This document shows, one piece after another, positions 1-37,599 of a DNA stretch of 64,000 nucleotides (position 1 is the stretch's first letter; the number at the start of each line of letters is the position of its first letter). The stretch covers positions 18,662,001-18,726,000 of the forward strand of contig JAGIQG010000013.1 of assembly GCA_024679065.1 (NCBI GenBank), written 5' to 3'. Both the position numbers and the translations under genes were made by a program. Below the pieces are notes generated by a model. The model searched no databases. It was not told where the DNA came from and worked only from the letters and a program-made list of their open reading frames with translations. The stretch is from Sphyrna mokarran (lineage: Eukaryota).

Positions 1-401
1 TCCTCGTTTCCCATTATTAAATGCTCTTTCTCGTCCTCTAAAGGACCAATGTTTATTTTAACCACTCTTTTTTATTTTATATATTTATAGAAACTTTTGC
101 TATTCTGCTAACTTTACTGTTCACTGATATATATTTTTGCTGAGCACTGTGGAAAAATTGCTTTGAAAGTCCTCCAATGTTCGTTAATTGTGCCACCTAT
201 GAAGTGTTTGCTCCCAGTCTACCTTAGCCAACTCCCTCAACTTGTTGTACTCTCCTTTATTAAGCACAATGCACTGATATTGGATTCTACTTCTCACCCT
301 CCATCTCCCTTGTTAGTCGCATTACGTACTGTTTGAAGAAGCTTTTGTGGATACATTCTCCTCCTCTAAGCTGCCTTGACCAGCCTGGTTTGGTTAATCG
401 A
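1..401 (-). mobile_element. Older degraded CR1 LINE fragment, continuing at ~2500-3450 after a younger insertion
   Basis: CR1-like sequence breaks at ...aatcgacat (~403) and resumes at tgtagattgaaatcccc (~2515). No intact ORF. Confidence 0.6.
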
Positions 402-2500
402 CATAGAACACTACAGCACAAACAGGCCCTTCGGCCCATAAGTTGCGCTGATCATATCCCTACCTACCAGGCCTTTCTATAACCCTCAATTCCATTAAAT
501 CCCATGTACTCATCCAGAAATCTCTTAAAAGACCCCAACAAGTTCGCCTCTATCATCACCGACGGCAGCCGATTCCACTCACCCATCACCCTCTGAGTGA
601 AAAATCTACCCTGATATCTCGTCTGTATCTACTCCCTAGCACCTTAAACCTGTGTTCTCTCGTAGCGATCATTTCAGCCCTGTGAAATAACCTCTCAGAA
701 TCCACCCTATCTATACCTCTTAACATCTTATAAACCTCTATCAGGTCATTTCTCATCTTTCGTCTCTCCAGGAAGAAAAGACCGAGCTTCCTCAATCTAT
801 GCTCATAAGGCATGCCACCAATCCAGATAACATCCTTGTAAACTTTCTCTGCACCCTTTCAATAGCTTCAACATCCTTCTTATAGTGAGGCGACCAGAAC
901 TGCACACAGTACTCCAAGTGGGGTCTGACAAGGGTCTTATAAAGTTGCAGCATTATCTCTTGACTCCTAAATTCAACCCCTCAATTAATGAAGGCTAGTA
1001 CACCATGCCCTTTTTGACCACATCCTCCGCCTGCGAGGCCAATTTAAGAGTTCTGTGGACCCGGACCCCAAGGTCCTTCTGATCCTCTACGCTGCTAAGA
1101 GTCCTACTATTGATATTATATCCTTCATCCCATTGGACCTGCCAAAATGGACCACTACACATTCATCCGTGTTGAAGTCCATCTGCCACTTCTGTGCCCG
1201 GTCTTGCATCCTATGTATGCCTCGCTGCAACTTCTGACATCTCTTTAGACTATCGACAACACCACCAACCTTCGTGTCATCAGCAAACTTACCAACCCAT
1301 CCCTCCACTTTCTCATCCAGGTCATTTATGAAAATTACAAACAGCAAGGGTCTCAGAACAGATCACTTGGGCACTCCATTCATGACCGATCTTCTTGCAG
1401 AAAAAGACCCATTCACAACCATTCTCTGCCTTCTGTAGGCAAGCCAATTCTGGATCCACAAGGCAACAGCCCCTTGGATCCCATGCCCTCTCATTTTTTC
1501 AAGAAGTCTTGCGTGGGGGATCTTATTGAATGCCTTGCCGAAGTCCATATAAACCACATCCACTGCTCTTCCTTCATCAATGTGTTTAGTCACATTTTCA
1601 AAGAACTCAACCAGGCTCGAAAGGCACGACCTGCCCTTGACAAAGCCCTGCTGACTACATTTGATCATACTAAACTTTTCTAAATGTTCACAAATCCTGT
1701 TCGTAAGGATCCTGTCCATCAACTTGTCAACCACTGAGGTCAGACTCGCTGGTCAGTAATTTCCTGGGCTATCCCTGTTCCCTTTCTTGAAAATAGGAAC
1801 CTCATCCGCAATCCTCCGGAACCTCTCCCGTCTCCATCAACGATGCAAAGATCGTCGCCAGATGCTCTGCAATCTCTTCCCTCGCCTCCCACAGTAACCT
1901 GGGGTACATCCCATCTGGTCCTGCGACTTATCTATCTTGATGCAATTTAAAAGTTCCAACACATCCTCTTTCTTAATGTCCACATATTCAATCTTTTCAG
2001 TCCGCTGCAAACCTGCAGAATCCAACCACCCAGATCATTTTCCACCGTGAATACTGAGGTAGAGTATTCATTAAGCACCTCTGCCATTTCTACTGGTTCC
2101 GCACAAACTTTTCCCCCTTTACCTTTTATAGGTCCTATTCCTTCACATCTCATCCTTTTACTCTTCACATATTTGTGGAATGCCTTAGGGTTCTCCTAAA
2201 TCTTACCCACCAAGGTCTTCTCTTGACCCCTTCTGGCTCTCCTCGTTTCCTTTTTAAGCTCCTTCCTGTAACCTGTATACTCCTCTAGATCCTTAACATC
2301 GCCTAGCTCCCTGAACCTTCTGTATGCCTTTCTTTTCTTTCTGACTAGGTTCATTACAACCTTTGTCCAGCACAGTTGCTGTAACCTACCAAAATCTCCC
2401 TGTCTCACCAGAATGTTATCATGCAGAGCTCCAGACAAACATTCCTTGAAAATCCGCCACCTTCCTTCAGTACTTTTCCCCAAGAACACCTTCCAATTTA
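402..2500 (-). mobile_element. CR1 LINE, 5'-truncated, frameshifted RT
   Basis: Minus-strand ORF pieces [53 protein letters not shown]; CR1 3' tail catagaacactacagcacaaacaggccc at the left end. Confidence 0.92.
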
Positions 2501-3450
2501 CTTGTCTAATTTACTGTAGATTGAAATCCCCTGTGATAATTGCCGTAGCATTTTTACATGCATTGGTTATTTTTTTGTTTATTGTCCACTCTACTATGAT
2601 ATTATGTGGTGGCCCATGCCTATCAATGATTTTGTTTCCTTACTATTTCTGATTTCCACCCAAATGGATTCAACCTTTTGCTCCATAGAACTTTTTCATT
2701 TTAATACCGCCTGATGGCATCCTTAAATATCAGAGTTTACACCACCTCCCTCACCTTCCTGTCTATTCTTCAGAATAATCTGATATCCCTGGATAATTGT
2801 AAACACCCTGCAAACATGTCTGTTTAATGGCCAGCACATCATATTCCTTTGTGATGTCAACTCATTTACCTTGATTCAAATGCAACGTGCATTTAGATAA
2901 AGTGCCCTTGTGCTAGTTTTTACTTCTTTTTGAATCCTAACATTTCCTGAGTTGTCCTCCTTTTAATTTTTTTCATAATTTTCCATGTAGTTGAACCCTC
3001 CTCCCCACATGCTGCTTTGCTTCCTGTTAACCATTATACTTTCCATAGTTTTTCCCTTCCCTTGCCCCCCCACAATTGTCAGTTTACAGTACTTGTTATT
3101 AACCTATTTATCCTTTCCACTAGAAACTTGTCCCAGATCAGTTCAGATGAAGACCATCCCAACAACAAAAATCCCTCCTGTCCCAATACGGATGCCAATG
3201 CCATATGAAATGAAACTCCTCTTTCCTGCGCCACTCCTTTAGCCATGTGTTTACTTATTGAATTTTCTCATCCCTATATACCACTTCACACGTAGCTCGG
3301 GCAGTAATCCAGAGATTATAATTCTTGAGGACCTGTTCTTTATTTTAGTTCCTAATAATCCCAAGCAGCTCCTCTTTCCTCGTCTTGCCTATGATGTTTG
3401 TCCCAATGTGAACCCCAACAACTGGATCTTCCCCTTCCCAGAAGGAAAAA
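2500..3450 (-). mobile_element. Older CR1 LINE, endonuclease/ORF1-side remnant
   Basis: Continues the element at 1-401; CR1-like motifs such as ggcagtaatccagagatta. Heavily degraded. Confidence 0.5.
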
Positions 3451-3503
3451 AAGAACTAGAAGAAAACTATTGATTTTTTTTTTTGTCCTTGTGTATATTT
3501 CAG

Positions 3504-3603
3504 TATGGAAAATTGTATGAATCTGATGAAAGCAAAGAACACGATAAAAAGCTGTACAAACCTGATGAATGCCAGGAGAACCTGATGAGCACTAAGTTAT
3601 CAA
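3504..3603 (+). CDS. HJURP: HJURP-like internal exon (YGKLYESDESKEHDKKLYKPDECQENLMSTKLS), phase 0 to 1
   Basis: tttcag acceptor, gtaagg donor, 100 nt open; phase joins the next exon. Confidence 0.65.
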
Positions 3604-3930
3604 GTAAGGCAAAGTTTTCCAAGGTTAAACTATGAAATTGTATTTGAGAGGAGAAACATTTTACAAACAACATATCATTTTCCCTAAAGTTATAATTTAA
3701 AACTTTAGTGGGAAACCTGTACCACTGCTTTACTCTCATCAAAAAAACACAAATTGGAATATTTTACTGATCAAAGATGACAACTTCTTGGCTAATCTTC
3801 TCTGTATCGTTCCAAGATGGGATTATCTTGTCAGCTTGAACCGTTTTTGTTTCTCTTGTGGGGATCATGAATTGGATTTATCTGGATTTTGAATTAGATT
3901 TTTGGAAAAAGCAAGAAATGTATTTGGGTT

Positions 3931-4045
3931 TAGACAAAATACTGTAGATGCTGGAATGTGAAACAAAAGTAGAAAATGCTGGAAAAATTCAGCAGAGCTA
4001 ACAGCTTCTGTGGGGAGAGAATATAGATTTTGGTTTGCATGGTCC
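3931..4045 (-). mobile_element. Penelope-like (pLTR-type) repeat fragment
   Basis: Minus strand reads tctctccccacagaagctgttagctctgctgaatttttccagcattttc; same family as 27355-27445. Family call is from memory. Confidence 0.45.
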
Positions 4046-4880
4046 ATTAGCATTGAGCATTGATCCTGAGCATTAGCTTTGTAACTTCATTTTTTTAAAA
4101 AAATTAAATGACTTCGCTGCCCAATGTCCCTCTGCTACAGTTGTGTTCAGTCTCTTTTTAATTTCCTGCTCCCATGCCCACAACCTAGTGACTCTTTAAT
4201 GATCATCTGCAAACGTATATATAGAAGACAACTTCTCCATCCAATTTATTAGTATATATGAATCACTGGCAAATATTGATTGTTGCAACCTGCCAATCAG
4301 AATATTTTCTTTATGTTTATTCCATTTCCTACTTCCTAACCAATTGCTGATCCATGTGGCAGGATTGCCTTCAATTCTATGCACTTCCATTTTCATTAAT
4401 AATTTCATGTATTGAATCTTAGCAAATGAGTTCTGAAACACTATTACATAATATCTATAGACATTCCCTTGCCTTCAGTACTGGTGACTTCGAAAATAAT
4501 CAAGGTGACCAGACAAAATTAACTTTCCAAAATTCATGCTGACTCTCAACTTCACAAATAGTGATCAGTTATTCTGTTAATGATGGATTCCAGTAACTTC
4601 CCAAAATGTGAAATGTACTGTAACGTAAATTCCATAGTCACTTTGGTTGAGAGTCCAATCATTTTGTATCTTTAAAAGCCTAATTCATGTTTCCAGCTGA
4701 TGGATTAAAATTGTTATTTGGCATAAAGCCCATCTTCATGACAAGCCCAACAAAGATTGTGAAGTGTGGCCTACTGGTGAGGGAATAACCAAGTAGAAAT
4801 ATGGCAGGAGTTGTATACATCAAAATTATAATATCTTGTATGTTTTAAAGTGATGTTGAGTAACTTTTTTTTAATAAAAG

Positions 4881-4948
4881 GTCAAGCAGATCAGACTTCT
4901 GATAGTGAAATTTTGAAAGATGGAAAGTGCACTGAAAGTATATCCAAG
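4881..4948 (+). CDS. HJURP: HJURP-like internal exon (SQADQTSDSEILKDGKCTESISK), phase 1 to 0
   Basis: T-rich ...aaaag acceptor, gtacag donor, 68 nt, in frame with both neighbours. Confidence 0.7.
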
Positions 4949-5419
4949 GTACAGTGTGATATTTGTCATATAAAGATGTATAAACTGCTTTCAAATATCA
5001 GGCGGACCACGTGCATAATAACATCAGTGGTCCAAAGTAGATTTCAAGCATTGAAAAGTGAAGCAATTGACTAATCTTTCCCCTCTGCCTATGGCTGAAA
5101 TTCTCTATTATTATAAAACTTGGCTTCTCAAGCAATATATTAGATGTTATTTGAAGAATAAACAGCCAAGATATTGGGGAGAATCTCATAGCCTTTCAAT
5201 TAGTGCATGAGATCTACATCCAAGGCAACAAACAAAGTATCAGTTTAAAGTTTAATCCGAAAGATAACATTGCCAATAATGTAGGTGCCTCGCCATATAG
5301 ATTAAAATATCGACCCAATGAGTTCACAATATCCATACTCAACAAGACCTTGGTAACATTCAGACTTGGGCTGATATATAGTATAAATGTTATTTGCCAT
5401 AAAAGTGCCAGGCAATTAC

Positions 5420-6170
5420 CATTTCCAAAGAAAGAACCTAGCCATTTTCCTGGAGTGGCATTCCCATTGTTGAATCCCCACAATCAAGACCTTAGAGGTT
5501 CCCATTGACCAGAAACTGAACTGCACTAGCCATATAAGTACTGTGGTTACAAGAATGTCACAATCTGGGTATTATGCAGCTAGTAATTTGTCCACTGACT
5601 CCCCAAAGCCTGTGCACCATCTACAAGGCAGAAGTCAGGAGTATGATGGAATACTCTCCATTTGCCTGGATGAGGGCGGGTCCAACGACATTAAAGACGC
5701 TCAATACCACCCAGGGCTAAGAATTTCACTTAATTGACATCCCAACCATTTCTTTAAACGTACACTCCCTCCATTACTGATGCACAATGGCACAATCCAG
5801 AAGATACACTACAAGAACTCACCAAAGCACCTTCAATGGCACTTTTCAAACCTGCCCACTCTACCACCTAGAAGGACAAGGGGTAGCCAATGTATGGGGA
5901 CACCTGCACCTGCAAGTTCTCCTTCAAATCACATATCATCCTGATTCAGAACTATATTGCAGTTTATTCACTGATGCAGTATCAAAATCCTGGAACTCCT
6001 TCCACCTAACAACACTGTGAATGTGCTCAAACCAGGATTATAGCAGTTCAAAAATGTTGCTCTCTGCCACTTTCTTGTACAATTAAGGATGGCAGCAAAT
6101 GCTGGCATAGCCAGCGATATCACCTCTTCCTCTCCTGCCTCCTCATCCTGCAATAGAATAAAAAAACTTC
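5420..6170 (+). mobile_element. 3' part of a second CR1/L2-group LINE family
   Basis: atctacaaggcagaagtcaggagtatgatggaatactc (IYKAEVRSMMEY-like) and tail aattaaggatggcagcaaatgctggc; related copies at 22365-23880, 31600-32360, 56500-56780. Confidence 0.7.
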
Positions 6171-6696
6171 TGATTCAGAGGAGAATGATACCATGAAAGT
6201 GGGTGACACTTATTGATATTCCACTCATGTTCAAATTTGATAACAATCTTTATGTACCAGCTTTTATTCTACTGACATATAATGCAGTTGGCAAATAGAA
6301 ATGGACTAAGTGGATGCAAGGAGAAATTTTGTGCATTTGCCTGCTAGTTCAGTGAATAAATATAGTTTACTCTTGCAAAACAGACTAATAATTCCCAATT
6401 TTGATCAATGCTGGCTATACTTGGTAAAGATGGAACAATTAGGATTTTTTAGAATCGTATAACTTGCACATTTGTGTAATTTTAATGTTGACAGCTATTG
6501 TACAAATATTTGCCTAAACCAAAGCAGTATCTTGTGCAGCACTCCATCAAAATCTATCTATGTTTCTGCCATCGTTTTGCCGTGGCATTTTTGACTATGT
6601 TTGATGGAAATATTTTGAATCAGGGTGAAATTTTAGTCCTTTTGCATACTCCACAAGAATAACGTAATAAAATTGTCTTCTTTTTTAACCTACTAG

Positions 6697-6801
6697 TCAC
6701 AAACCAGCATCACTATGGGAGAAATGAATGTAGGAGATAAATATAAGGTAGATGTTGACATACTGACTACTGGCAATGGTAATCGTGGAAAGCAAGTCTT
6801 G
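6697..6801 (+). CDS. HJURP: HJURP-like internal exon (SQTSITMGEMNVGDKYKVDVDILTTGNGNRGKQVL), phase 0 to 0
   Basis: Polypyrimidine tract plus ctag acceptor, consensus gtgagt donor, 105 nt open. Confidence 0.75.
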
Positions 6802-7785
6802 GTGAGTATTGCATTTGCATGTATATTAAAATAACAGTGTTTACATGATTTGGGAAGTGATGGGCATTTTTGAAATTACTTATGCAAATAGAAAAGCTGA
6901 AAGTAACATTTAAAATTTGTTTACAAATCTACAGAAAATTGCCAATAAATCTGATTTAATTTAATGAATTGTCTCAACATTAGGATGTTTAATCTCACTA
7001 ATGCTGTGACAAAATCTTCAAACTTGATATTTGGCTTCAGAGATCACTAATGATGCATTCATATTTTATAACCCATTATGATCGTAACTATTTTCTCAGA
7101 ATTGTAGAACTCTACAACATACAGTCTATTAGAGCTCACTTTGTCTATGTTGCCCATTTTGAGAGTGTAATTGTGCCTTTAAAGCAGAGATCAAAAGATT
7201 GTTGATAAATTAGGGATGAAAGGTTATCAGGAGTAAGTGGGAGGTTACAATAGGATCAACCAGGATCTTATTGAATGGAGGAGCGGACTTAAGAGGCCAA
7301 GTGGCCAAGTCCTGGTTTACATGTTTGTATGAATAAAGGGTGCTGGAGGCTGATTCAATAGAGCAAAATTTGAGAAGAGAAAATGTTGCAGAAATAATAG
7401 CTAGTGGGACCTGATTTTCTTTTTGTAAAAGGCAGCACAGACTCAGCGGGCCTACTGGCCAGTCCTGTGGTATAGCATTCTATAGCCATGCTGCCATGGA
7501 AAGGGATCATTAAGAAATCTGTTCTGTTTTGTAAGCATGAAAATTTTAAGGGGAGAATTGCTGCATCTTATTTGCATATATCTTAGTAACTAGTTTTAAA
7601 ACAATATTGACAACGAGTCCACCACAGAAGTGTGTCAAGAGGATTATTTTACCAGGAGACACTTTTTGTGACTTATACTGTTCGGATAGCTGGATCAAGG
7701 AATTATTATTTGTTGATCGAATATGCAGTGTGGTGTGAGTGATTGAACGTTTTTTCTGTCTTAACCTTTGAATGTCTTTTTGAAG

Positions 7786-7876
7786 GTGGAATGTGTTGGG
7801 AGGACCAAAGATAAACCAATGATCATGTTTACCGATACATGGAAGACGGAAGTTGGATTGTCACATACAGATCCTG
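7786..7876 (+). CDS. HJURP: HJURP-like internal exon (VECVGRTKDKPMIMFTDTWKTEVGLSHTDP), phase 0 to 1
   Basis: ctttttgaag acceptor, gtacgg donor, 91 nt; phase matches the large exon. Confidence 0.7.
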
Positions 7877-8283
7877 GTACGGTTGTGTTGTAGTTGAATC
7901 AATGCTGTCTAAAATTCTGTGACTGCACAAGCTTTGGTTTTAATTAATCGTTTACATTGTAACGCATGCAGCTTAATCCTAAAATCTTTTAATGGGGGGA
8001 GAGGGCAATAAGTGCTGACCCAGCCAGCAATACTCATGCCCCGTAAAATTAATAAAAAAGAGAAGCAGTCAATCTAAAATCATCTACAGTTGAAATTTCT
8101 GGCCATTTTAAAGTACTATCAAATTATTAATGAAATTTAAATACTATTTGTGTAACTTAGCAGGTAACTCTCTTGTTTTGTCTGTGAAGATTTTTATATC
8201 TATGGCAGCTTCTTATCAATATTTGTTGGTTACTGATAGAGCCAAATGTTGCTTATGTGTGTGATTTCTTTATCTCTCACAAG

Positions 8284-9767
8284 ATCGCAACGATGACTTG
8301 CAGGCAACAATTTCTGGAGAATTAAATCATTCATCGAGACCTGAACGTGATGAAGATGACTCAAACTTCATTTCTTCTATATCCTATGATCAGTCTTTGG
8401 TGAAGCCACTTTGTGAACATGGTAGCAAAGAACTTTCTTTTACGCTCGGGTTTGAAAAAAATACAAGCAATGTTTTAGATTTGGCAGAAACAATATCCAC
8501 TTGTATCAGTGAAGATTCCAGAGAAAATCATGATGATACTTCATCTGGTTTAAGTGATACAACCCTTATCGATATCTACCCGAGTATGCTAGCATCAATG
8601 AGTAAATTGCTTGACCGTGGCTACAAGACGCAGGTTGCCTCAAGATTAATAAAACATTATCGACGTCTCCAGTTGAATGCATGTAAATCAAAACTAAATA
8701 TAACTCAAGATGGATTAAGAATGAAGGCCAAGATGGATGCCCAAATGTTAAAGAAGGTGGAGGGTAATCCTGTTATTGAATTAAAGGCATGTTCTGGAAT
8801 CAAATGTGTGAATGGAACAATTTCTTCTCTGAAGAGATACAGAACTGCAGAATCTAATCTTGACACATGTATGTCCATGCCTGCTGCTGAAAGTTCTTTG
8901 GCTGCACAGCAAACAAATCCAAAATTGTTTGAAATTGAAACTTCTGAGTTTAGAAATTCAGACAATGATGCAAATTACTCCCAGTCACAACTAAACCCTT
9001 CCAACCCAAAAAGTTCAGTACCAGTTACAAATTGCTGCAGCATGAAGAAAACTTTACTTCCTATAGTCATTTCTTTGAATGGACCATCTTTGCCCCAGCT
9101 GGATACTGTGACCAGTTTCAGATGTTTCCATACAAAACCTAATGTAGTAAAAGCACAATTGCCATGCTCAGAACTTGTTCTTAACCATTCACCGAAGAAA
9201 AAATTATCTCCACTGAACAATAATACAATGACTAAAGAGGATTCTGCAATAGCAAATTTCTGCAGATCACCATTTAGAATGTTTTTGTGCTCAAACAATG
9301 TTTCCCACACTGACCAAAGAAGTAGACGGAGGCATTCATTTTCCTCTACGAGTTCTGTTCCAACCATGTTCTCTTCTATAAGGAGCCCAATTAGCACTCG
9401 AGTAAAAGAAATGGATGCATTTGAATCCATATATAATAACTTGGTTCATAATTCATTCTCTCTTTCAACTTCTGTGAAGCTTCCCAATATATTGAATGTA
9501 AGTTCTGTCTCTGGTAGAACTATTACATCAGTGACATCTGTTCCAAACTCACCTTCCCATCAATCAAGGAAGCGAGCTGCTTGTATTGACCAGTTGAGAG
9601 AAACTTCGCGATTACCATTAAAGAGGTTCCGCTCCTTTCTGGTATCATCTAGTTCAAATCAAAGTAATCAGGAAATGGTGCTGCTGAATACTGTGTTAAA
9701 AGATCAGAATTACCACTCTGCACAAATGAGTCGCTTTTATTCTCCAAGGTGCCAGCGGTCCAGAGAG
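8284..9767 (+). CDS. HJURP: HJURP-like large exon (1484 nt, ~494 aa), Ser-rich, with middle-domain motif and one C-terminal-repeat-like motif
   Basis: ORF 8298-9779. SDTTLIDIYPSMLASMSKLL resembles human HJURP SDVTISDLYAGMLHSMSRLL as recalled; EMDAFESIYNNLV resembles the HJURP C-terminal repeat core. ctctcacaag acceptor, gag|gtgaga donor. Confidence 0.85.
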
Positions 9768-9824
9768 GTGAGATCCTAATTGTTTTTAAACTCACACTGC
9801 TTAAGTTTTTAAACTTAAATTTTA

Positions 9825-10096
9825 CTTATTAGCATCATGTAGGCTTACATTAATACTACTATGAAAATTCCCACACTCTGGCGCCTGTTCGGGTACATTG
9901 AGGGAGAATTTAGCATTGCCAGTGCACCTAACCAGCATGCCTTACAAACGTAGGAGAAAACTGAAGCAGCTGGAGAAAACCTTTGCATACACGGAGAGAA
10001 CGTGCAGACTCCACACAGACAGTGACCCAGACTGGGAATTGAACACTTTACCTGGTGCTGAGAGGCAGCTGTGCTAACCATTGAGCCACCATGCAC
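9825..10096 (-). mobile_element. tRNA-derived V-SINE (HE1-like), tail type A
   Basis: tRNA A/B-box head (tggttagcacagctgcc...gttcaattccc) and V-domain ctgtgtggagtctgcacgttctctccgtg. Confidence 0.85.
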
Positions 10097-10546
10097 TATG
10101 CATTAGTTCATACTAATGAGTGTTAGGATTTTAATAATAGCATGATGATGGATATTTGAAACATCCATACTGTGCTCAGATGGAGCATCAATAAAGAATT
10201 AACAGTGGGGTTATAGATTTTTGTTGTTACAACTTTGGGTTGTATCTAGAGTAGTTGGTTGATTATTTCATAGCTTCAGTTTTGTCTCATCTAATTAAGA
10301 GTAAAGCATCACAAATTGCTTTGGCCTACTATTGGGTTTTATTTCTTCCTGCAGTGTGTTGATACCATAATATTAAATATTCACTTAATAACAAAACTAG
10401 CAACTGTCAGTAATTAAGCCAAGTTTTGATGCTATTAAATCTAAGCTGATAATTAAGTTTTTTGCATTCAATTTTAATATTTCTGCTGCAGGGAGTTATA
10501 ATCTCTGATTGTAAAGAATGTTTACATCTGCTTTATTTTAGCAATG

Positions 10547-13190
10547 TTATAAAAACAAAGGAAATAGGTGCAAGAGTAGGCCCTTCGAGCCCGCACCATC
10601 GTTCAGTGTGATTATGGCTGATTTTGCACTTTCAGTATTCCTCTCCTGCTTTTTCTCCATACCCCTTGATCCCTTTAGCCACAAAGACCATATCCAACTC
10701 CCATTTGAATGTAATCTAGGAAACTGGCCCCACCAGTTTCTGTGGTAGAGAATTCCACAGGTCCACAACCCTGGGTGAAGAAGTTCTTCCTCAGTTCAGT
10801 CCTGAATGGCTTACTCCTTATTTTTAGACTATGATCCCTAGTTCTGGATTTTCCCAAAATCAGGAACATCCTTCCCGCATCTAGCCTGTCTAGTCCCATC
10901 GGAATTTTATGTTTCAATGAGGCGCCTTTCGTTCTTCTAAATTCCAGTGAGTACAAGCCCAGTCGATCGAGTCTTTTCATATTAGTCCTGCCATTCTGGG
11001 AATCAGTCTGGTGAACATTCGCTGGACTCTCTCACCAGTAAAAATGTCCTTTCTCAGATTAGGAGACCAGAACTGCACACAGTACTCGAGGTGTGACCTC
11101 ACAAGGGCCTGTATAACTGCAGCAAGACATCTGTACTCCTAAACTCAAATCCTCTTGCTATTAGTTTTCCTCAGCGCCTGCTGTATCTGTATCCTAATCT
11201 TCAGTGAGTGTTCCACCATGGCATCCAGATCATGTTTCACTTCCCCTTTTTCTAAACTAGCATTCAGATAATCTTCCTGTTTTTGCCACCCAACTGGATA
11301 GCCTCATATTTCTCCACGTTATATTGTAGTTGCCCATTTTGTCAGCCTGCCTAAGTCACTCTGCAACCTCTTAGCATCCTCCTCACAACACATAATGCCA
11401 CCCTGCTTAGTGTTGTCTGAAAACTTGGAGATATTGCATTCAATTTCTTTGTCCAAATCATTAATGTATATTTTGAATAGCTGGAGTCCCAGCACTGAAC
11501 CGTGTGATACACAATTAGTACTGCCTGGCACTCTGAAAAGGACCCATTTATTCCCATTCTGCTTCCTGTCTGCCAACTAGTTCTCTATCCACGTCACTGT
11601 TACCCCAATACTGTGATGTTTAATTTTGGTCACTAATCTCTTGTGTGGAACCATGTTGAAAGCCTTTGAAAATCCAGGTACACAGTGGTTCACCCTTGTC
11701 CATTCTACTGGTCACATCCTCAAAAAATTTCAGCAAATTTGCCAAGCACAGTTTCCTTTTAGTGAATCAATGCTGACTTGGACCTATACTTTCCAATGCT
11801 GAGTTATTACATCTTCAGTAACTGAGTCAAGTATTTTCCCTACCACCAATACCAAGTTAACTGATCTATAATTCTTTGTTTTTTCTCTCTCTCCTTTTTT
11901 TAAAAGTGTTACATTAGTTACTATCCAATCCATTGGATCTCTACCAGAATTTATAGAATGCTGGAAAATAATCACCAATGCGTCCACTATTTCTGGGACT
12001 AGATGTGGGAAGAATATTCCTGATTTTGGGAAGTCCGAAACTAGGGGTCACAGTCTAAAAATAAAAGGTAAGCCATTCAGGACTGAAATGAGGAAAAACT
12101 TTGTCACTCAACGTTATGAACCTGTGGAATTCTCTACCACAGAAAATTGTTGGGGCCAGTTTGCTAGATTGTGTTCAAATGGGAATTGGACATGGCTCTT
12201 GTGGCTAAAGGGATCAAGGGGTATGGAAAAAAAGCAGGAGAGGGATGCTGAAAGTGCATAATCAGCCACAATCACTATTTCTAATACTCTGGGATGCAAA
12301 GCATCAGACTCTGGAGACTTATCGGATTTAATCCCAATCCCTTTCCCCAGTACAATTTCCTGACTAAAAAGATTCGCTTTAGTTCCTCCTTCATGCTAGA
12401 CCTAGTCCCTAGTATTTCTGGAAGGTTATTATGAGGACAGATCAACAGTATTTGTTCAGCCATCTTTGTTGCCCATTATTATGAATTTACTGGAGGGGTA
12501 AGGGACCTACATTTGTCTTCCAGTTTTTTTCTCTTCACATGTTTATAGAACTTTTGCAGTCAGTTTTGATGTTCTCTGCAAGTTTACTCTTGTATTCTAT
12601 TTTCTCCTTCGGAATAGAACCCTTTGTCTTCCACTGCTGAATTTTAAATTTTTTTAATCCTCAGATTTGCTGATTTTTCTGGCCAATTTATAAGCCTTCT
12701 CTTTTGACTTTAATACTAATTTCCCTTGTTATTCATGGTTGAGCTATCTTCTTATGTCAGACAGATGTGTTCTTTAAGTATCTGCCATTGTTTATCCACT
12801 GTCAACCCCGCTAAAGTATGTGTTGCCAGTTTATCCTAGCCAATGCATGTCTCATACCATCAAAGTTAGCTTTCCTTAAATTTAGGACCCTAGTCTTAAA
12901 CTTAACTGTGTCACTGTCCACCTTAATGAAAAAATTCTACCATATTATGGTCACTCTTCCCCAAAGATTCTCCCACCGCAAGGTTGCTAATTAATCCCCT
13001 CTCATTACATAATACCTAGTCTAAAATGGTCTAATTTGTCCCTCGTCATGTTGGTCAAGGAAACCATCCCTTGTACATTCCAGGAAATCCTCCTCCATTG
13101 CATTGCTGCCAATTTGATAAGCCCAATCAAAATGCAGATTGAAGTTACCCATGATGATTGCTGTACCCTTGCAGCAATTCTTATGGATTC
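10547..13190 (-). mobile_element. CR1 LINE, degraded, with an internal inverted copy of its own 3' end (~11998-12275)
   Basis: ORF pieces RLDRLGLYSLEFRR, GSVLGLQLFKIYINDLD, KKGEREKTKNYRSVNL. Confidence 0.9.
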
Positions 13191-13454
13191 CTTTGTTTGT
13201 CTAGTTGAAGGGATGACGTGTTTTAAGTTGTATTCACTGTATTTCTTTTCACACTGCTCTATGAAGCTCACTGTATCCTAATTAAGCCTTAAGTAAAGAT
13301 CAAGTTGTGGTATTGTGCTGGAAAATGTTCACAATGTGCACAAATTGTTGCAACCTGAGTAGTCTTGCTTCCCTTAATCTTAAAACCCCTTGTACTTCAG
13401 TTGTATAGGAAAACACATTTCGTCATCAGTTTCCTCTTTGGCTGCATGTTTTAG

Positions 13455-13760
13455 CTGCACAGTGGCACAATGGTTAGTGCTGCTGCGTCACAGTGCCAGA
13501 GACGCAGATTCGATTCTAGCTTGGTCACTGTCTGTATGGAATTTGCACTTTCTCCCCGTGTATGCATGGGTTTCCTCAGGGTGCTCTGGTTTTCTCCATA
13601 ATCCAATATGTGCAGGCTAGGTTGATTGGCCGTGCTAAAATTGATTGTAGTGTCGGGGGATTAGCAGAGTAAATGTTACGGAAATAGGACCTGGGTGATC
13701 AGTACAGACTCGGTGGGCCAAATGGCCTCTTTCTGTATTGTAGTTATTTTATGATTCTAT
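13455..13760 (+). mobile_element. V-SINE (HE1-like), CR1-type tail B
   Basis: gtggcacaatggttagtgctgctg head, V-domain, tail gggccaaatggcctctttctgtattgtag...atgattctat. Confidence 0.85.
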
Positions 13761-14067
13761 GTGTTGTTTATAATAGATATAATAAAAGATCATGATTAAA
13801 GATTGCACATGATTAATTAATGATCTTTTGTTTGGACCAGCTAATAAATTTTATCCCTTTCAGAAAAATAGATTTTCCTAAATGTCAACTGTATGTTCAG
13901 TTTTGTTGGGTAGTTGAAGGATTAAAAATGCAGGAGTTTGGAGAGGTTGCGATGGGAATAACATGTGAACATGAGAATTAGGAGCAGGAGTAGATCTATA
14001 GTCATGTAAAATCTGGAGTTTATTCTCATCTCAATTGTATTACTCAAGTCAATTAAAAAGTGCAAAG

Positions 14068-14345
14068 TTAAAGTTTATTTATTACTCAGAAGTAGGCTTT
14101 ACATTAACACTGCAATGAAGTTACTGTAAAATTCCTGTAGTCACCACACTCTGGTGCCTGTTTGGATATACTAGGGGAAAATTTTAACATGGCCAATTCA
14201 CCTATCACATCTTTGGACAGTGGGAGAAAAAACACAGATACTGGAAAGACTAACAAACTCTACACAGAAGTGATCCAAGCTGGGAATTGAATCCAAGTCC
14301 CTGGCACTGTAAGGCGACTAACCATTGTGCCATCATGCTGCCCCT
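14068..14345 (-). mobile_element. V-SINE, tail type A
   Basis: aagtttatttatt...cattaacactgcaatgaagttactgt tail; tRNA head at the right end. Confidence 0.8.
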
Positions 14346-15815
14346 TTTTTTTTAAATACAACTTGGGAAATTTATCTAAAGGACTCTGCAGTTCCTGAGC
14401 AGATATAGATTACTCCCAGATACAAGTGTGTTGTTACAAAGTTTCACAGAATTTATTAAGTTAATTGCAATAGGTACAAAATTATAATACTCAATAAATC
14501 AGTGAATTAGTTCATTCATTCAAGAATAATGGCTCTCAACTTCTGGCTGATTGTGTTCTCTCTTGTCTGTTAAGTGAAGTCCATCTTCATGGGACAATTC
14601 TCCCAAAAATATTCTAAGTGTCAAGTTCGAGTGAAAACAGTAATAAATCATGCTGTTTTTTTCCTACCAACAGCACTTAATCAGTCCCTAATTGGTTAAA
14701 TCGTTTATAATCCATTGTTCTCTTAAAGGGTATGGTCATCTAGTGATATCACTTCTTGTTGTTTCCTGACTGGTCCTCTTGATGTCAGTTACTCATGGGA
14801 CCTGCCCGTTCATTATAGCTTTTTTAGTCGTTTCATTAAATATTACAATTTTCTTCCAAAATAGTAAGGGCCTTAGGATAGGTTTGATATCTTTTCATTT
14901 ACAATAGGAGAACCTGACATCTGAACACCAAACTCATCGGCCCATGTGTCTACTTTATCCAAAGATATTAGTATTTCATGTCCTGTATAACACTCATTAA
15001 AACACTTATCGGTATGTTTTGGTTTGAAAGGACACTCCTGTCATTGTATGTTTTTGTTGCATCTACCATGCTTTGTATAAGTTAATTAAAAATACAGAGT
15101 AATGCATAGCCTTATTGAAATTACAATTTATATAAAATGCAGGTAACATTGGTGCTTAAAAGTGATCGGTGTGCTAAAGTTAAGGCAGTAAGATTCATTT
15201 AAAAATATAACACGCCATATTTCTAAATAATAAAAGTCATGAAAACTACATAGCTACAAAGGCTAATTACAGAACTTATTTCTAAACGTATAGAATTGAA
15301 TATAAAAGAAAGTGGCTGCTTCTTTTACATCATCACAAATTAAACTGCATTACTTTTAAGGCATAAGGCTGAATATTTTAATATCTGTTCTTCTTTGCAC
15401 AATAGACTTTTAAATGTAAGGAATATACAGTGATAAATTTAATTGGTAGAGAGGTTGATGGTTTCAGACCAAAACTGTTCAATCCATCTTGCATCATTGG
15501 CTTGGGGTTATGTGGTTTCTCTCACTTATTAAATAGGAGTACGATGCTAATGGCCACAATTCTGCATCATATATTGGATTAATATACTTCGATTATTTGG
15601 ATTACTAATTGTAAATTGTCAACTTTAATATTTTCTACAGTGGAACTAACTGGATTGTACTTCAAATGAAATATCTCGTACTCAGTGGGCCAAATGGCTC
15701 CCACCTGCCTATTTTATGAATGTTACCAACTATAATGCTTATAACATTGGCGATATTTAATGCAATTCAGCCCATTTTGACTTCTGTTTATATTCTTTTC
15801 CTTAAATCTTTACAG

Positions 15816-15876
15816 AATATTACTTTGGACTCAGATATTAAATGGGAAGATAATGCGAGATTGTACTCCACTTATG
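15816..15876 (+). CDS. HJURP: HJURP-like exon (NITLDSDIKWEDNARLYSTY), phase 0 to 1
   Basis: Strong polypyrimidine tract plus tacag acceptor, gtatgt donor, 61 nt, in frame. Confidence 0.72.
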
Positions 15877-16819
15877 GTATGTATTAAAATATATCACCTA
15901 GCTATTTGTTAGTTACAGCCCAACTAATGAAATTGCTTTGCACTTCTTTGAACCCTTGGTTGAGGATGTTTTGAAAACAGATGGTGACTCAATATTTCAG
16001 AAATTTTGCATTGAAAAAGTGTTCCATCAAGTGGAAACAGCTTTGATTTGATTTATTATTGTCACATGTGTTAGTATACAGTGAAAAATATTGTTTCTTG
16101 TGTGCTATACAGGTAAAACATACCATTCATAAAGAAGAAAAGGAAAGAGTGCAGAAGATAGTGTTGCTGTCACAGCTAAGATGTAGAGAAAGATCAACTT
16201 AGTGCGAGGTAGTTCCATTCAGAAATCTGACAGCAGGGAAGAAGCTGTTCTTGAGTTGTTTGGTATGTAACCTTAGACTTTAGTATCTTTTTCCCAATGG
16301 TAGAAGGTGGAAGAGAGTATGTCCAAGGTGCATACGGTCATTATGCTGGTTGCTTTGCCGAGGCAGTGGGGGAAGTGTAGGCAGAATCAACAGATGGGAG
16401 GCTTGTTTGCATGATGGATTGGGCTGTGTTCACGACCTTTTGCAGTTTCTTATGGTTTTGGGCAGTGCAGAAGCTACACCAAGCTGTGACACAACCAAAA
16501 AGAATGCTGTGTATGGTGCATCTATAAAACTTGTTGAGAGTTGTAGCAGACATGCCAGATTTCCTTAGTCTTCTGAGAAAATAGAGGCAGTGGTGGGTTT
16601 TCTTAATTATAGTGTTGGCATGGGGGGATCAGGACAGGTTGTTGGTCATCTGGGCACCTAAAAACTTGAAGCTCTCGACCCTTTTCTACTTCATCCCCGC
16701 TGATGTAGACATGGGACATGTTCTCCTCTACTCGTCCTGAAGTTGATGACAATCTCCTTCATTTTGTTGACCACCAGTTCTATCTCATTCAGTACTCTGT
16801 TTCATCATTGTTTGAGGTC

Positions 16820-17357
16820 TGTGTTCAATTCTGGTCACCACACTACCAGAGAGTGTCATAGCGTGGTGAGGCTTTAGAAAGAGTATGGAAAAGATTTAGC
16901 AGGATGTTGCCTGGTACGGAGGACATTAGTTACGAGGAGAGGTTGGAGAAACCTGTTTTTTTCTCACTGGTTGAGCAGAGACCTGATAGAAGCCTACAAG
17001 ATTGTGAGGCATGGATAGTCAGAAGCTTTTTCCCAGGATGGAAGAGTCAATTACTAGGGGGCATAGATTTGAGATGTGAAGGACAAGGTTTAAAGGAGAT
17101 GTATGAGGCAGATTTTTTACACAGAGGGTGATGAGTGCTTGGAACTCATTGCTAATAATGGAAGTGGATATAGTTGTGACTTTTAAGGGGCATCTTGACA
17201 AGTACATGAGTGGGATGGGAATACAAGGATATGGTCCCCAGAAGGGTAGAAGGGTTTTAATTAAGTTGGGCAGCATGGTTGCTGCAGGTTTTTTTGGGGG
17301 GGAGGGGGTGTGGTGTCGAAAGGCCTGTTCCTGTGCTGTAATTTTCTTTGTTCTTTG
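16820..17357 (+). mobile_element. CR1 3' fragment nested in the Rex1/Babar element
   Basis: MLPGTEDISYEERLEK; tail aggcctgttcctgtgctgtaattttctttgttctttg. Confidence 0.85.
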
Positions 17358-18952
17358 TCTGTCCCACTACGGTGTGTTGTCAGCAAACTTGAAAATCGAA
17401 TTGGAGAGGATTTTGGCTACACAGCAATAGGTGTATAAGGAGTATAGTAGGGGATTAAGAACACAGCCTTGTGGGGCACCGGTGTTGAAGATGATCATGG
17501 AGGAGGTATTGTTGCCTATCCTAACTGATTGTGGTCTATGAGTTAGGAAGTTCAGGATCTAGTTGCAGAGGGAGGAGCCAAAGCTCAGGCTACAGAGTTT
17601 GGAGATTAGCTTCACAGCAATAATGGTGTTGAAGGTTGAGATGTAGTTAATAAATAGGAGTTTAAAATAAGTGTCTTTATTATCTAGGTATTCCAGGATT
17701 CAGTGCAGGTCCAGGGTGGTGGCATCTGCTGTGGACCTGTTGTGGCAATAGGCAAACTATTTATGGATCCAGGTAGTCCAGGAGGCTGGAATTGATTTGT
17801 GCCATGACTAGTCTTTTGAAGCATTTCATAATGATTGATTTCAGAGCCACCGGATGATAGTTTTGAGGCACGTTGCTTGATTTTTCTTGGGTACTCGGAT
17901 GATGGCCGTCTTCTTTAAAGCAGATAGGGACTTAAGATTGTTGTAATAAAGAGAGGTTGAAGATGTCTGCGAATACCTCCACCAGCTGATCCGCAGGATC
18001 TGAGTGCTCATCTGAATACCCCATTTGGGCCAGTTGCTTTCCGTAGGTTGACCTTTGATAAAGCTGCTCTGACATCTGCAATGGTGACCCCAGATACAGA
18101 TTCTTCCAGGGTGGAGGGTATGCTCTCACTGAACTCTTGCTCAAAATGGGCATTGACTGCATTGGCTCATCAGAGAGAGGTGAGTTGGAACCGGCGATTT
18201 TACATGCCTTCATCCCGTAGCGTGTTATGTCTTGCAGATTTTGCCATAGTCGGCGGGGGTCTGTATGGCTAATCTGAGACTCTAGCTTGATCTGATACTG
18301 TCTTTTGGCATTTTTGGGTCTCAAATTATATCTGGCTTTCTTGTATATCAGGGTCACCTGACTTGAATGCCTCAAATGTAGACTTCAGTAAGCAGTGGAT
18401 ATCCCTATTCATCCATGGTTTCCAGTTGGAGAACACGTGTATTTACTCTTCTACACATTTACTAATGAAGTCAGCTATTATAGTGGCATACTCATTCAGA
18501 CCGGTTGCAGAGGTTTTAAATATTGGCCAGTTCACTGACTGGTTGCAGGGTTTTTAAATACTGATTTTCAGATCAAAATTGCTTTGATGGATTCTCCTGT
18601 TTCAGTTTTTGCTTGTAAGCCAGGAGCAGGAGCACAGCCCTGTGGTCTGATTTGCCAAAATGTGGGTGGGTGATAAAGCAGTAGGCATGTTTGATATTTG
18701 TGTAGCAGTGGTCTGGGGTACTGGGTCTCCAGTAGAACAGGAGACATGTTGGTAGTATGCTCTTGAGCTTGGTCTGACTTAAGTCCCCTGCCATAATAAA
18801 CAAGGCTTTAGAATGTTTTGTCTCAAGGCTATTCATAGTTGTGTATATTTCATCCAGCATGATCTTCACATCGGTATGGGGTGAGATATAAAGTGCCATC
18901 AGGATAATGGAGGTGAACTTTTGCAGAAGGTAGTAGGGCGGCATTTTAGCTT

Positions 18953-19210
18953 TTTTAAGTTTATTGATTAGTAACAAGTAACGAAGTTACTGTGAAATTC
19001 CTGTATTGCCACAGTCCGTAACTGTTCAAGTCAAGACACCTAACCAGCATGTCTTTCAGAATGTGGGAGGAAGCCAAAACATCTGGAAGAAACCCATGCA
19101 GACTTGGGAGAATATGCAAACTCCTCACAGACTGTGACCCAAGCTGGGAATCGAACTTGGGTCTTTGGTGCTGTGAGGCAGCAGTGCTAATCACTGTGCC
19201 ACCATGCTGC
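18953..19210 (-). mobile_element. V-SINE nested in the Rex1/Babar element
   Basis: tRNA head, V-domain and type A tail. Confidence 0.8.
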
Positions 19211-20661
19211 AAAAACTTGCTCATGTTGGTATGTCTAGGCACCACGAGGTGTTTATTAAGATGCAGATCCTAGCCTTGTCTGAGGCTGTTGTATGGTCCA
19301 TTCAATGGATTTGAGAAACCCTCTGGTTGTAAGGCGCAGTCCAGTGAAGCAGGAGTGAACCATGTCTCCATGAAACAGTACACAGCTGTTCTCTTTGGAA
19401 AATGAATCTGGCTCTGTGTTCGTCTTGTTTGTTTCCCAGAGATTGGATATTTGCAAGCAGTAAGCTGGGGAGGGGAGCCTTGGGACTGCATTGTTTCACT
19501 CTCACCTGCAGGCCTGCATGTTTTCCGTGCTTCCTGGAATGTCTGCTTTTTTTCAAGCTTGGGAGACACTGAGAGTGGTTTGCAGTGTTAAAGGTATAGT
19601 TGTGTCCAATGAAGTTCTTCTCTCTGGTTGGTGTATGGATGAAAGATTTGTTGGCTCGCTTACAGTTCCTGCGTCAGTAGATGGTCCATGCAGTCGGGTG
19701 TTCCAGATCACTGTCAGGCTGTGGTTTGGCTTCGCCAGTTGGTGAATATCCAGGCCACACTCTGGTGTGGATGGGTCGAAGACTGGTAAGTGGATGAAGT
19801 CCCTGGATTCACGGTCATGGATGAGCCAGTGGTTGGGCCCATGTGTTGAGGTCCCCGGGTCACTGCTGGGTTGAGCTCTTCCTTTAGAGGTCGGAGGATC
19901 TCTCGACCTGTAAGTAAATTTAAAAGGGCAGCTTTAGTGATTGTTAGGAATTAATTTTTAGCAGGGTGGGGCAACTGTAGAAGGGGGATTGAAGGGAGTG
20001 CTTGTTGTAGCTCTCTGGGTCAAAGAGATAGGGGACGGAGAGGAGGGCTCTAAGCTCGCTTGGAGGTCTGGTCGTTGGAGACCAGCGGAGTGGAGGTCCC
20101 AGCTCCCATGGTGTTTTCCTGGGTGCTAAAAGTCTTCCGAGTGTAGACCCAGGCTTCTCGGGCATTTTCCTGGTCTCTGAAAGCTGGTGTGGTGTAATCC
20201 CCACCTCTGGGACTGCATGCCAGCTGCTGTTCATGTGGGTGGCCGGTCAATTTCAGGTCAGCCTGATTGGGTGTCTGCAGGGTCCTAAGGATCACCACTT
20301 CTGTTAAACATTGTTTTAAAGCATTGTTGGAGAGTTCAAAAGAGTTGGAATGAAATTTTAGAGGTATAGAACGAGAGTAAAAGAGACAACTTGAAGCTAT
20401 GCTAGGCGTAGCTTGCAAGAAGTCACCTCACTCTGGTACAATCTTGAATTTTTTTTGGCATGGAAAAATTGTGTAAGACTTAATAATATGTGCAATCCCA
20501 TATTGATCTTAAACATAACAGCCAGATTTGACCACCCGTCACGGTATTCCATATTCATAGTTCTGCTGTAGTAAAATAAATGCTGTTGATTAAATTTTAT
20601 GTTTCTGCAGTTTTGTCAGATGGAAATTAAACAATAATAAGTCTAATTTTCTTATTTTTAG

Positions 20662-20734
20662 GAACTCTCTTGCCTGTCGTAAATAGTTCAGGAAATACTG
20701 AGAGTTTATGTTTATCACCCAGATTTCGGAACAG
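20662..20734 (+). CDS. HJURP: HJURP-like exon (GTLLPVVNSSGNTESLCLSPRFRNR), phase 1 to 2
   Basis: ttattttttag-type acceptor, cag|gtatgt donor, 73 nt, in frame. Confidence 0.72.
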
Positions 20735-21517
20735 GTATGTGGTGAAGTATTTAGTTTATTGTTCAATTAAACTATTAAATAATCTATTATGTAGGTTTTC
20801 AATATTTTGATTTTGAAAGAAATGGTCTTGTAGTTCTATGTTTTAGAGTATGTAGCATCACTGGATGTTCATTTTTTTTTACAACGTTATTGTGAAAACT
20901 TCATTTTGCCACCAGATGCTAAATTTTTAAACAAAAATGTCTCCTCCTCGTTAACTGTTTCCATCTCATTGCCTTTATTCATTTGCTCTCTTCGTGGAAT
21001 AGCTATTAATTGTATATTTATAGTTCAAAGTTCTGTACAGTAAGTTTCTCAGCTACGCATTTTCAAGTTCAATTTCAGTAAAGAACCTGTATAATTTGTG
21101 TTAGTCTTCTAAGGAATATATAGAGTGTGAAGATATAAAGTAGGCGTTGTGGCTTTAAAATACCCCAGGCAAGAATTTCATAAGATATTTTTCCATTCCT
21201 TTCCACCTTTTTGAATTATGAAATGGGGAGCGGCACACTGGACTATAGTGCATGCAATTAATTTCATATCTTCGTTCTAATACAATATACTCAGTATAAA
21301 GCTGAGGCAATTTTAAGTTCTCCAATAATTTGAATAAATCTGTTAATAAAATGAGATTTTAATACTTTTAAAAATTGGTTGAATTAAGAGTAGAACATGT
21401 TTGTGTGGATTTGATGGACCCGAAGGGCCTCTTCTGCGCTCTGTGATTCTGTGAAAGAAGAAGCAATTACTAGCTGGAATGTTGTAATTAAATGACATTT
21501 TTACTTTCTCTTAACAG

Positions 21518-21563
21518 AGTGTCAAGAAAACTGGACTATACCAAACTCAACACCCCAGTCTGA
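21518..21563 (+). CDS. HJURP: HJURP-like last coding exon (VSRKLDYTKLNTPV*)
   Basis: ctttctcttaacag acceptor in phase 2, TGA at 21561-21563, followed by an AT-rich repeat-free 3'UTR. Confidence 0.72.
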
Positions 21564-22032
21564 ACTTTGCTGACTTTATTGCAAAACTTGTGTTGTGCAC
21601 CATAAACCTGTTTTTGCTTGTTTCTATGCTGATGCTTTTAACTATGTTTTTCAGTATTACAAACATTTTTAAAGTACTGATTTTTAGTGTGTTTTCCACT
21701 CTCTTCTTCACAAGTGCACAAGTGTGATACTGTGCAACTTGAATCACAAAAGATTATCTGGTCATCTCCCACAAATTTTGAAGACAATCAGTAGTTGGTA
21801 CCTGCATCTCTGTAAAGGAACACTGTCTGAATGCTGGTCACTGCCATATTTTGAACCCTAAGTCAAATGTAAACCATGTTACCATCATGTCTTCATAGCT
21901 GAATTTGAGTCTGAAATTATTTACCTGTTTATTTTGTTTTTGTCCATATTTTATTATGTTTTAGTCCTCCTTGTTAATCCTTACTATATTGTGATTCATG
22001 CAGCTTAAAAACCATCATTTTAATGGACTTTC

Positions 22033-23952: not shown

Positions 23953-24878
23953 CGCTGTTTGTAATTTTTATAAATGATCTGGATGAAGGTATTGAAGGAT
24001 GGATTAGTAAATTTGCGGATGACACCCAAGTCGGAGGAGTGGTAGATAGTGAAGAGGGGTGTTATAGTTTGCAGAGAGGTGGCAAATGGAGTTTAATGCA
24101 GAAAAGTGTGAGGTAATTCACTTTGGCAGGAATAACAAATGTGTAGAGTATAGGGCTAATGGTAGTACTCTTAATAGTGTTGAAGAACAGAGGGATCTTG
24201 GTGTATATGTGCATAGATCCCTGAAAGTTGGCAATCAAGTCGATAAGGTTGTTAAGAAGGCATACGGAGTCCTAGCTTTTATTGGTAGGGGGATTGAATT
24301 TCGGAGCCGCAACGTCATGTTGCAACTGTACAAAACTCTCGTGCGGCCGCACTTGGAGTATTGTGTGCAGTTCTGGTCCCCGCATTATAAGAAAGATGTG
24401 GAGGCATTGGAGAGGGTACAGAGGAGGTTTACCAGAATGTTGCCTGGTATGGAAGGCAGGTCTTATGAAGAGAGGCTGAAGGTTTTGAGGTTGTTTTCGT
24501 TAGAAAGAAGGCGGCTAAGAGGAGACCTTATTGAAACACATAAGATGATTAGAGGTTTAGATAGGGTGGACAGTGATAGCCTTTTTCCTAGGATGGAGAA
24601 AGCTAGCATGAGGGGACATAGCTTTAAATTAAGGGGTGGTAGTTATAGGACAGATGTCAGAGGTAGGTTCTTTACCCAGAGGGTGGTAAGGGTATGAATG
24701 CCCTGCCTGCTGCAATTGTAGATGCGTCAAGTTTGGTGGCATTTAAGAGGTTAGTAGATAAGTTTATGGACGAAAAGGGAATGGTTTAGGTTAGAGGGTC
24801 ATTGCTTTTTCCTAATTGGTCGGCGCAACATCGAAGGCTGAAGGGCCTGTTCTGTGCTGTAATGTTCAATGTTCTATG
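23953..24878 (+). mobile_element. Young CR1 3' fragment
   Basis: 203-aa ORF 24086-24697 (LYKTLVRPHLEYCVQFWSPH), nearly identical in protein to 62640-63392; atgttc-type tail. Confidence 0.95.
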
Positions 24879-32494: not shown

Positions 32495-32556
32495 CTTGGT
32501 TTCATCTCTGTATCTATTAGCTGGCGTCATGGCTTCATAACAGCACTCATCCTGAA
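32495..32556 (-). CDS. TRAT1: TRAT1 exon 5 (VQDECCYEAMTPANRYRDETK), phase 1 to 0
   Basis: Matches human DENCYEQM (YxxM); tttttaaag acceptor, aag|gtattt donor, 62 nt. Confidence 0.9.
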
Positions 32557-37559: not shown

Positions 37560-37599
37560 CTCTGCAATTCTTTGACACTGTGGTATATTGGTCTAGGAG
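37560..37599 (-). CDS. TRAT1: TRAT1 exon 3 (APRPIYHSVKELQS), phase 1 to 2
   Basis: ctttctctgatttgcag acceptor, ag|gtatgg donor; 40 nt gives exactly the phase change needed between exons 2 and 4. Confidence 0.75.

Follow-up and report, generated by a model that had tools for sequence, protein, structure and literature searches.

A probable HJURP orthologue with a single Mis18-binding-type repeat in a 64-kb window of the Sphyrna mokarran genome

Here, we describe a gene in a 64,000-nucleotide stretch of DNA from Sphyrna mokarran (contig JAGIQG010000013.1, positions 18,662,001 to 18,726,000 of the forward strand). We call the whole stretch the window, and all coordinates are window positions. 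Eight forward strand exons, between positions 3504 and 21563, almost certainly belong to the orthologue of HJURP in a ground shark that is a close relative of Mustelus. On the sequence evidence, they make up the 3' 90% of this gene. Support comes from database E-values, obtained with and without the N-terminal Scm3 domain, from collinear conserved blocks and from synteny. These lines of support are mutually independent. The first-pass annotation, made from the letters of the window, had proposed an HJURP orthologue in a probable cartilaginous fish. Profile matches, the gene neighbourhood and a tree position beside Mustelus all agree with that proposal.

All eight exons have an AG acceptor preceded by a pyrimidine tract, and all seven donors are GT. 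Joined, the exons comprise 2028 nt in one open frame, encoding 675 residues (14.8% serine) followed by TGA. Note that the other two frames of the spliced 2028 nt contain 47 and 63 stops. Hence, the eight in-frame GT-AG exons and Ser-rich product described previously are confirmed. Exon junctions are backed by orthologue protein models. When the Mustelus asterias protein P0001 was used as a tblastn query, all eight exons were matched, in order, with E-values from 0 to 1e-3; the next match had an E-value of 0.7. The spliced model and P0001 are identical at 597 of 675 positions (88%), with at least 80% identity in each exon. The first exon in the window (3504–3603) is in phase 0 and equates to P0001 from residue 76 onward. 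It is followed by exons at 4881–4948 (19 of 23 residues identical to P0001), 6697–6801 and 7786–7876. The last two encode, respectively, the first and second halves of a conserved beta-rich block (residues ~51–107), where strand predictions are of low confidence. Next are a large coding exon of 1484 nt (8284–9767), an exon at 15816–15876, and one at 20662–20734 specifying a conserved, short, beta-hairpin-like segment. The last coding exon (21518–21563) ends with TGA at 21561–21563, and the first AATAAA 3' of the stop is at 22033.

The 5' end of the gene is outside the window. Reading upstream from exon 3504–3603, the frame reaches a stop at 3471 after 10 codons, with no ATG. Since this exon has an acceptor, and no ATG before the in-frame stop, it is internal. 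Residues 1–74 of five orthologues, corresponding to the Scm3 part, produced only chance-level tblastn matches to the window (best E 0.31). Given that P0001 residues 1–74 are unmatched, and that there is no ATG 5' of 3504, the gene starts before base 1. The first-pass annotation had likewise placed the Scm3 domain outside the window. A different explanation is that the gene is HJURP by descent, with Scm3 exons lost or disabled in this species, and does not chaperone CENP-A. Consistent with loss, no Scm3 exons are present in the 3.5 kb upstream, which is mostly similar to long interspersed nuclear elements (LINEs), and in the tree described below the window branch has four times the length of the Mustelus branch (0.1 versus 0.025). 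However, the 675 codons are intact, the splice sites are canonical and the first exon, with its acceptor, has no ATG of its own upstream. Furthermore, Scm3 is matched above the Pfam cut-off in the Mustelus protein (88% identical). Given that introns elsewhere in this gene are as long as 6 kb, a longer one upstream would be ordinary. We consider loss of Scm3 very unlikely, and prefer an intact HJURP gene that extends beyond the window.

Related proteins are found in sharks and rays. A search with the large exon matched 16 proteins, of which 14 are named, all from these animals. As anticipated by the first-pass annotation, the gene has been left uncharacterised; each of the 14 named matches is labelled 'uncharacterized' or 'hypothetical'. 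In one of the matches, Scm3 is already annotated (precomputed). When 1.84 billion representative sequences were searched exhaustively, five matches were returned, including the more distant proteins P0018 and P0019. Stretches of P0019 are identical to a tetrapod row of published HJURP alignments (PMC13322267; here and below, published work is cited from the part of each source available to us). Pfam Scm3 (PF10384) matches the N-terminus of 9 of 13 named shark and ray orthologues, with E-values between 9e-6 and 5e-3. P0001 is one of two for which the match is above the curated cut-off. The models of the remaining four orthologues do not include that N-terminus. A KY dipeptide occurs in 12 of the 13 chondrichthyan rows that include the Scm3 core.

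To connect these proteins with known HJURPs, we used a profile built from 10 elasmobranch sequences. It matched 19 proteins. The sole non-chondrichthyans were a pair from turtles, with E-values of 5.4e-19 and 4.4e-11, both annotated as 'Holliday junction recognition protein'. Searched against 177,635 PDB sequences, the profile had a single match: 3R45_C, which is human HJURP (E 1.6e-8). Alignment of the elasmobranch profile to turtle HJURP with hhalign gave a probability of 99.2, spanning Scm3 and a conserved block. When the profile was trimmed to the part encoded in the window, the turtle HJURPs were still matched (E 1.1e-6 and 1.2e-4), as was P0019 (E 2e-9), at a scale of 5.8 billion sequences. 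Hence, the link to HJURP does not depend on the missing Scm3 domain. These results bear on whether an unrelated, Ser-rich, disordered protein might have short helical motifs that resemble HJURP by chance. In favour of chance, the window pieces have no Pfam match and the full model is only 22–25% identical to turtle HJURP. Chance is refuted by the database-scale E-values, with and without Scm3; collinear blocks and synteny, which are independent of those E-values, also speak against it. We give it practically no credence, and so keep to HJURP ancestry. In a maximum-likelihood tree built quickly from 20 rows, with no outgroup, and omitting P0014 and P0015 as partial or duplicate models, the window protein groups with Mustelus (support of 100). 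The pair sit inside Carcharhiniformes; next come catsharks, then Carcharodon, carpet sharks and Heterodontus, while rays stand apart. This order agrees with elasmobranch species relationships.

Conservation is concentrated in discrete parts of the protein. Across 14 elasmobranch rows the mean is 0.56, with peaks at residues 51–100 (0.72–0.73), 201–250 (0.80–0.82), 551–575 (0.77) and 626–675 (0.70–0.71). Blocks other than Scm3, common to tetrapods and teleosts, have been reported, and their origin placed in the ancestor of both (Hollis et al. 2026, PMC13322267). Three such blocks correspond to human residues 247–308, 556–601 and 647–687 (data file and Fig S4C of that paper). All three are found in the shark protein, in the same order, at 8553–8699, 9327–9443 and 9546–9635. 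The first block (8553–8699) is predicted to be helical and includes an RxL-type string at 8658–8675. Compared with turtle HJURP it is 35% identical over 62 amino acids (pairwise E 9e-11). In shuffle tests, applied to six blocks with 300 shuffles, it scored 36.7–47.7 bits on all three non-chondrichthyan rows, a level reached by 0 of 300 shuffles each time. The second block (9327–9443) is the single C-terminal repeat, R-x-HSFSS followed by F-x-x-hydrophobic-Y-x-x-L, and corresponds to human 556–601, the R2-type Mis18-binding block. It scored 7.6–17.5 bits, again with 0 of 300 shuffles on all three rows; scores with the turtle HJURPs were 17.3 and 17.5. The third block (9546–9635) is basic, of the form SP ... 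RKR ... PxKR, and was equated with human 647–687 by eye; it is not significant in the shuffle test. The remainder of the protein is largely a disordered, Ser-rich linker. Note that the motif on which the first-pass annotation relied is present, at 8553–8612. Its alignment with human HJURP holds. The assignment to the middle domain does not, because the segment matches human 247–308, immediately upstream of that domain. Similarly, the human peptide quoted for comparison began S-D, but these residues are C-N in the published alignment (PMC13322267).

Synteny provides separate support. The next gene, 9,101 bases away from stop codon to stop codon, is TRAT1, on the reverse strand and tail to tail with the HJURP-like gene. 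The last TRAT1 exon shows 95% identity with the Mustelus gene product (E 2.6e-53), and all eight matches are named TRAT1 or TRAT1-like. For six of these eight, records indicate one chromosome shared with the HJURP-like gene of the same species, which is not evidence of adjacency; the other two are not comparable. In a table from a chicken genome-wide association study, MYH15, KIAA1524, SH2D1B, TRAT1, HJURP and GUCA1C are listed around the same two single nucleotide polymorphisms, at chr1:88.87 Mb (PMC9850194). A synteny figure legend also places Hjurp among Trat1-Dzip3 neighbours (PMC4467842). Together, this suggests that the ancestral location of HJURP is the neighbourhood of TRAT1. The same data address the possibility that the gene is a chondrichthyan HJURP paralogue, with the working chaperone encoded elsewhere. 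A tree without an outgroup says nothing on paralogy, which leaves room for this. Against it, our searches found one family, with one gene per named species (two Scyliorhinus torazame models share N-terminal sequence), and the gene adjoins TRAT1, just as HJURP lies near TRAT1 in chicken. We regard a paralogue as extremely unlikely and the gene as the orthologue.

Several observations weigh against this identification. The first-pass annotation had pointed to Pfam as a check, and here its proposal fared poorly; seven window pieces had no HJURP_mid, HJURP_C or Scm3 match, and neither HJURP_mid nor HJURP_C matched any of the 13 orthologues. Furthermore, seven of the nine Scm3 matches in orthologues are below the curated cut-off. 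Scm3 exons were not found by tblastn in the window, including positions 1–3503, and their presence in this genome's copy is presumed. In the shuffle tests, for which blocks were picked after the alignment had been viewed, the basic block had no match on either turtle HJURP. The beta block was equalled by 46 of 300 shuffles on one turtle HJURP, with no match on the other, and the C-terminal block passed with just one of the two turtles. An AlphaFold2 model of P0001, from an 8-row alignment, had a mean predicted local distance difference test (pLDDT) score of 34, with no residue above 70, making the fold unusable. An ESM Atlas search, with residues 60–170 of the large exon, found nothing related; two unrelated leads, scoring under 0.8, were rejected. 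Finally, the chicken gene list indicates proximity of TRAT1 and HJURP, not adjacency. With respect to Pfam, note that turtle HJURP itself has no HJURP_mid match and an HJURP_C match below the cut-off. Since these models miss or under-score a turtle HJURP, they do not define the family. Helices and strands in the AlphaFold2 model sit where expected, which carries little weight at a pLDDT of 34, and Foldseek with the same unusable model gave an uninformative 0 matches at E<=0.001. Separately, MEF2-type proteins, presumed to be carriers of HJURP_C, were considered as a candidate family and dropped; no such domain or match appeared. The other Pfam results for the window pieces were unrelated and weak, with one SIT match on a TRAT1 exon falling below threshold, and Rfam had 0 matches.

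We next turn to the number of Mis18-binding-type repeats. Human cells need a pair of HJURP repeats, termed R1 and R2, for loading (PMC6731319). We counted one repeat core in the window protein, one in 16 of 17 other elasmobranch rows and one in P0019. The core is missing from P0015, an internally deleted model, and from truncated P0018. Conversely, both turtle HJURPs have two. Scans by pattern, profile and matrix did not reveal a second repeat in the shark proteins, and second-best windows scored at shuffle level. Elasmobranch HJURP is hence a natural one-repeat variant with which to ask how many repeats a Mis18 complex needs.

A further module may contact CENP-C. In chicken, HJURP residues 100–150 bind the CENP-C cupin domain; this region is predicted to form a sheet of two strands, after which comes S143 (bioRxiv 10.1101/2025.10.05.680587). 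The matching frog site, S220-P221, turns CENP-C binding off in metaphase (bioRxiv 10.1101/2021.10.28.466278). The beta-rich island of the shark protein, residues ~51–107 (6697–6801 and 7786–7876), may correspond to this module. It has the same position as the chicken module, aligns to the equivalent turtle region and has predicted strands, although similarity to turtles is not significant in the shuffle test. The island ends with Thr-Pro in 14 of 17 chondrichthyan rows. The equivalent residues are Thr-Asp in the window (7831–7836), Thr-His in Mustelus and Thr-Ser in Hypanus. Judging from these residues, the lineage of the window and Mustelus lacks the proline of a likely cyclin-dependent kinase (CDK) site after the beta block. 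It is possible, though we hold this only tentatively, that shark HJURP retains an ancestral jawed-vertebrate design of one repeat plus a strongly conserved module for CENP-C docking, that the two-repeat dosage rule known from human is an amniote addition, and that a CDK switch on CENP-C binding was lost in the Mustelus lineage. If so, one-repeat shark HJURP would have to reach centromeres either with two molecules for each Mis18 complex or largely by way of CENP-C.

We next consider function. By analogy, the shark protein is very likely a CENP-A chaperone. The N-terminal Scm3 domain, with its KY dipeptide, is present in orthologues and would be encoded upstream of the window in this genome. 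From family knowledge, this domain should bind a CENP-A/H4 dimer. The beta-rich block (exons 6697–6801 and 7786–7876) could dock on the cupin dimer of CENP-C, as described for chicken and frog, a step in which we place slightly less than even confidence. The single helical repeat, at 9414–9443, would bind the Mis18 alpha/beta helical bundle; we think this reasonably likely. CDK activity is expected to bar the protein from centromeres until G1, acting through the block at 8553–8699 and S/T-P sites. After mitotic exit, recruitment via CENP-C and the Mis18 complex would permit CENP-A deposition in G1. We infer all of these binding and timing steps from human, chicken and frog HJURP, and from the validated zebrafish orthologue.

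Some parts of the gene vary between species. Just past the Scm3 domain, a unit of ~12 residues (3504–3570) occurs as two copies here, in Mustelus and in Carcharodon. Most other sharks have one copy, and rays have up to three. Exon 6697–6801 (phase 0-0) has 0 of 35 matches in P0018, which may reflect exon skipping or an exon missed in the P0018 model. Past the stop, in a shifted frame, positions 21554–21613 resemble the C-terminus of the Scyliorhinus canicula protein, which extends further. This likeness indicates that the tail differs between species owing to a one-base indel near the stop. A longer C-terminal tail is also seen in skate proteins.

The TRAT1 model, on the reverse strand, has six exons, and 185 of its 195 residues are identical to Mustelus TRAT1 (P0022). 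The last coding exon, which serves as the convergent synteny marker, is at 30665–30970. Working back towards the start, exons 5, 4 and 3 are at 32495–32556, 33492–33553 and 37560–37599, and exon 2, encoding the transmembrane segment, is at 44813–44926. The probable first coding exon (45896–45899) consists of ATG plus one base, and was the one of eight candidates that reproduced the start of P0022. About 1.3 kb upstream of this start codon is a low-complexity tract of ~580 bases (47178–47754), containing only C and T. Further upstream, at 48000–50250, the CpG observed/expected ratio is raised (0.7–1.05) and GC content is low; this is possibly a promoter region or young insertion. Between the HJURP-like gene and TRAT1, at 25844–26458, there is a tandem duplication (317-base period, 1.9 copies, 88% matches). 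Open-frame fragments resembling reverse transcriptase occur in both orientations, at 1249–1752, 24068–24697, 58055–58423, 62640–63407 and elsewhere. The copies at 24.1 kb and 62.6–63.4 kb are near-identical. These fragments resemble remnants of CR1/L2-type LINEs. A short interspersed repeat is present in many copies, at approximately 13455–13720, 35790–36070, 37005–37290, 39820–40090, 41250–41510, 52080–52330, 55540–55750, 56080–56360 and 61590–61850. This is presumably akin to the elasmobranch HE1 short interspersed nuclear element.

Our data suggest that shark HJURP fills an expected gap, and is not a new system. By comparison with other vertebrates, it likely loads CENP-A in the same way. 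HJURP has now been found across deuterostomes and most metazoans, teleosts included (PMC13322267, 2026). Hence, the view expressed in the first-pass annotation, that HJURP is hard to detect outside tetrapods, is outdated. Since that survey makes a shark orthologue expected, the surprise is low. We found no chondrichthyan in its text or readable supplements, using taxon terms and two shark-specific strings, though its figures or supplementary PDF may hold one. Similarly, our literature searches turned up no published HJURP from a chondrichthyan, although one might exist in bioRxiv supplements or in subscription journals. The new points, read from sequence, are small: sharks also appear to have the three blocks of tetrapods and teleosts, a single repeat and, in this lineage, no proline at the likely CDK site. 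A gene 'uncharacterized' in each named shark and ray record found now gets a name. Shark HJURP also supplies an outgroup to bony vertebrates, one not found in the available parts of the 2026 survey, and dates the three blocks outside Scm3 to the ancestor of jawed vertebrates, earlier than the tetrapod-teleost ancestor proposed in that survey.

We also compared the shark protein with known HJURPs. Those of turtles (P0020 and P0021) are of similar length (about 750) and share with the shark family, in the same order, Scm3 (seen in the orthologues), the helical block, R-x-HSFSS with the repeat helix, the basic block and a C-terminal RV-x-R-x-L-x-Y motif. Linkage to TRAT1 is seen in chicken as it is in shark. 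Differences are the low identity (22–25% with turtles), the two repeat cores of turtles versus one in elasmobranchs and, compared with sauropsids, the absence, in the window and Mustelus, of the proline from the S/T-P site that follows the beta block. Human HJURP is presumably not located near TRAT1. The synteny legend mentioned above does distinguish genes located elsewhere in human (PMC4467842). Residues 16–67 of human HJURP (3R45 chain C) are those matched by the Scm3 region of the shark profile (E 1.6e-8), and the 247–308 and 556–601 blocks align with the shark protein. However, human HJURP has R1 and R2 repeats and matches Pfam HJURP_mid and HJURP_C, whereas the shark protein has one repeat and neither match. 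Teleost HJURPs were not recovered by the sequence searches run here. Like the shark gene, those of teleosts and coelacanth were formerly uncharacterised, and encode Scm3 plus the same three short blocks (PMC13322267). The zebrafish orthologue, si:dkeyp-117h8.4, has been validated by pulldown, localisation and CRISPR (PMC13322267). In one respect the shark Scm3 domain is closer to that of tetrapods: it keeps the tetrapod-like string 'PFEDD', which is not present in the teleost rows available from PMC13322267.

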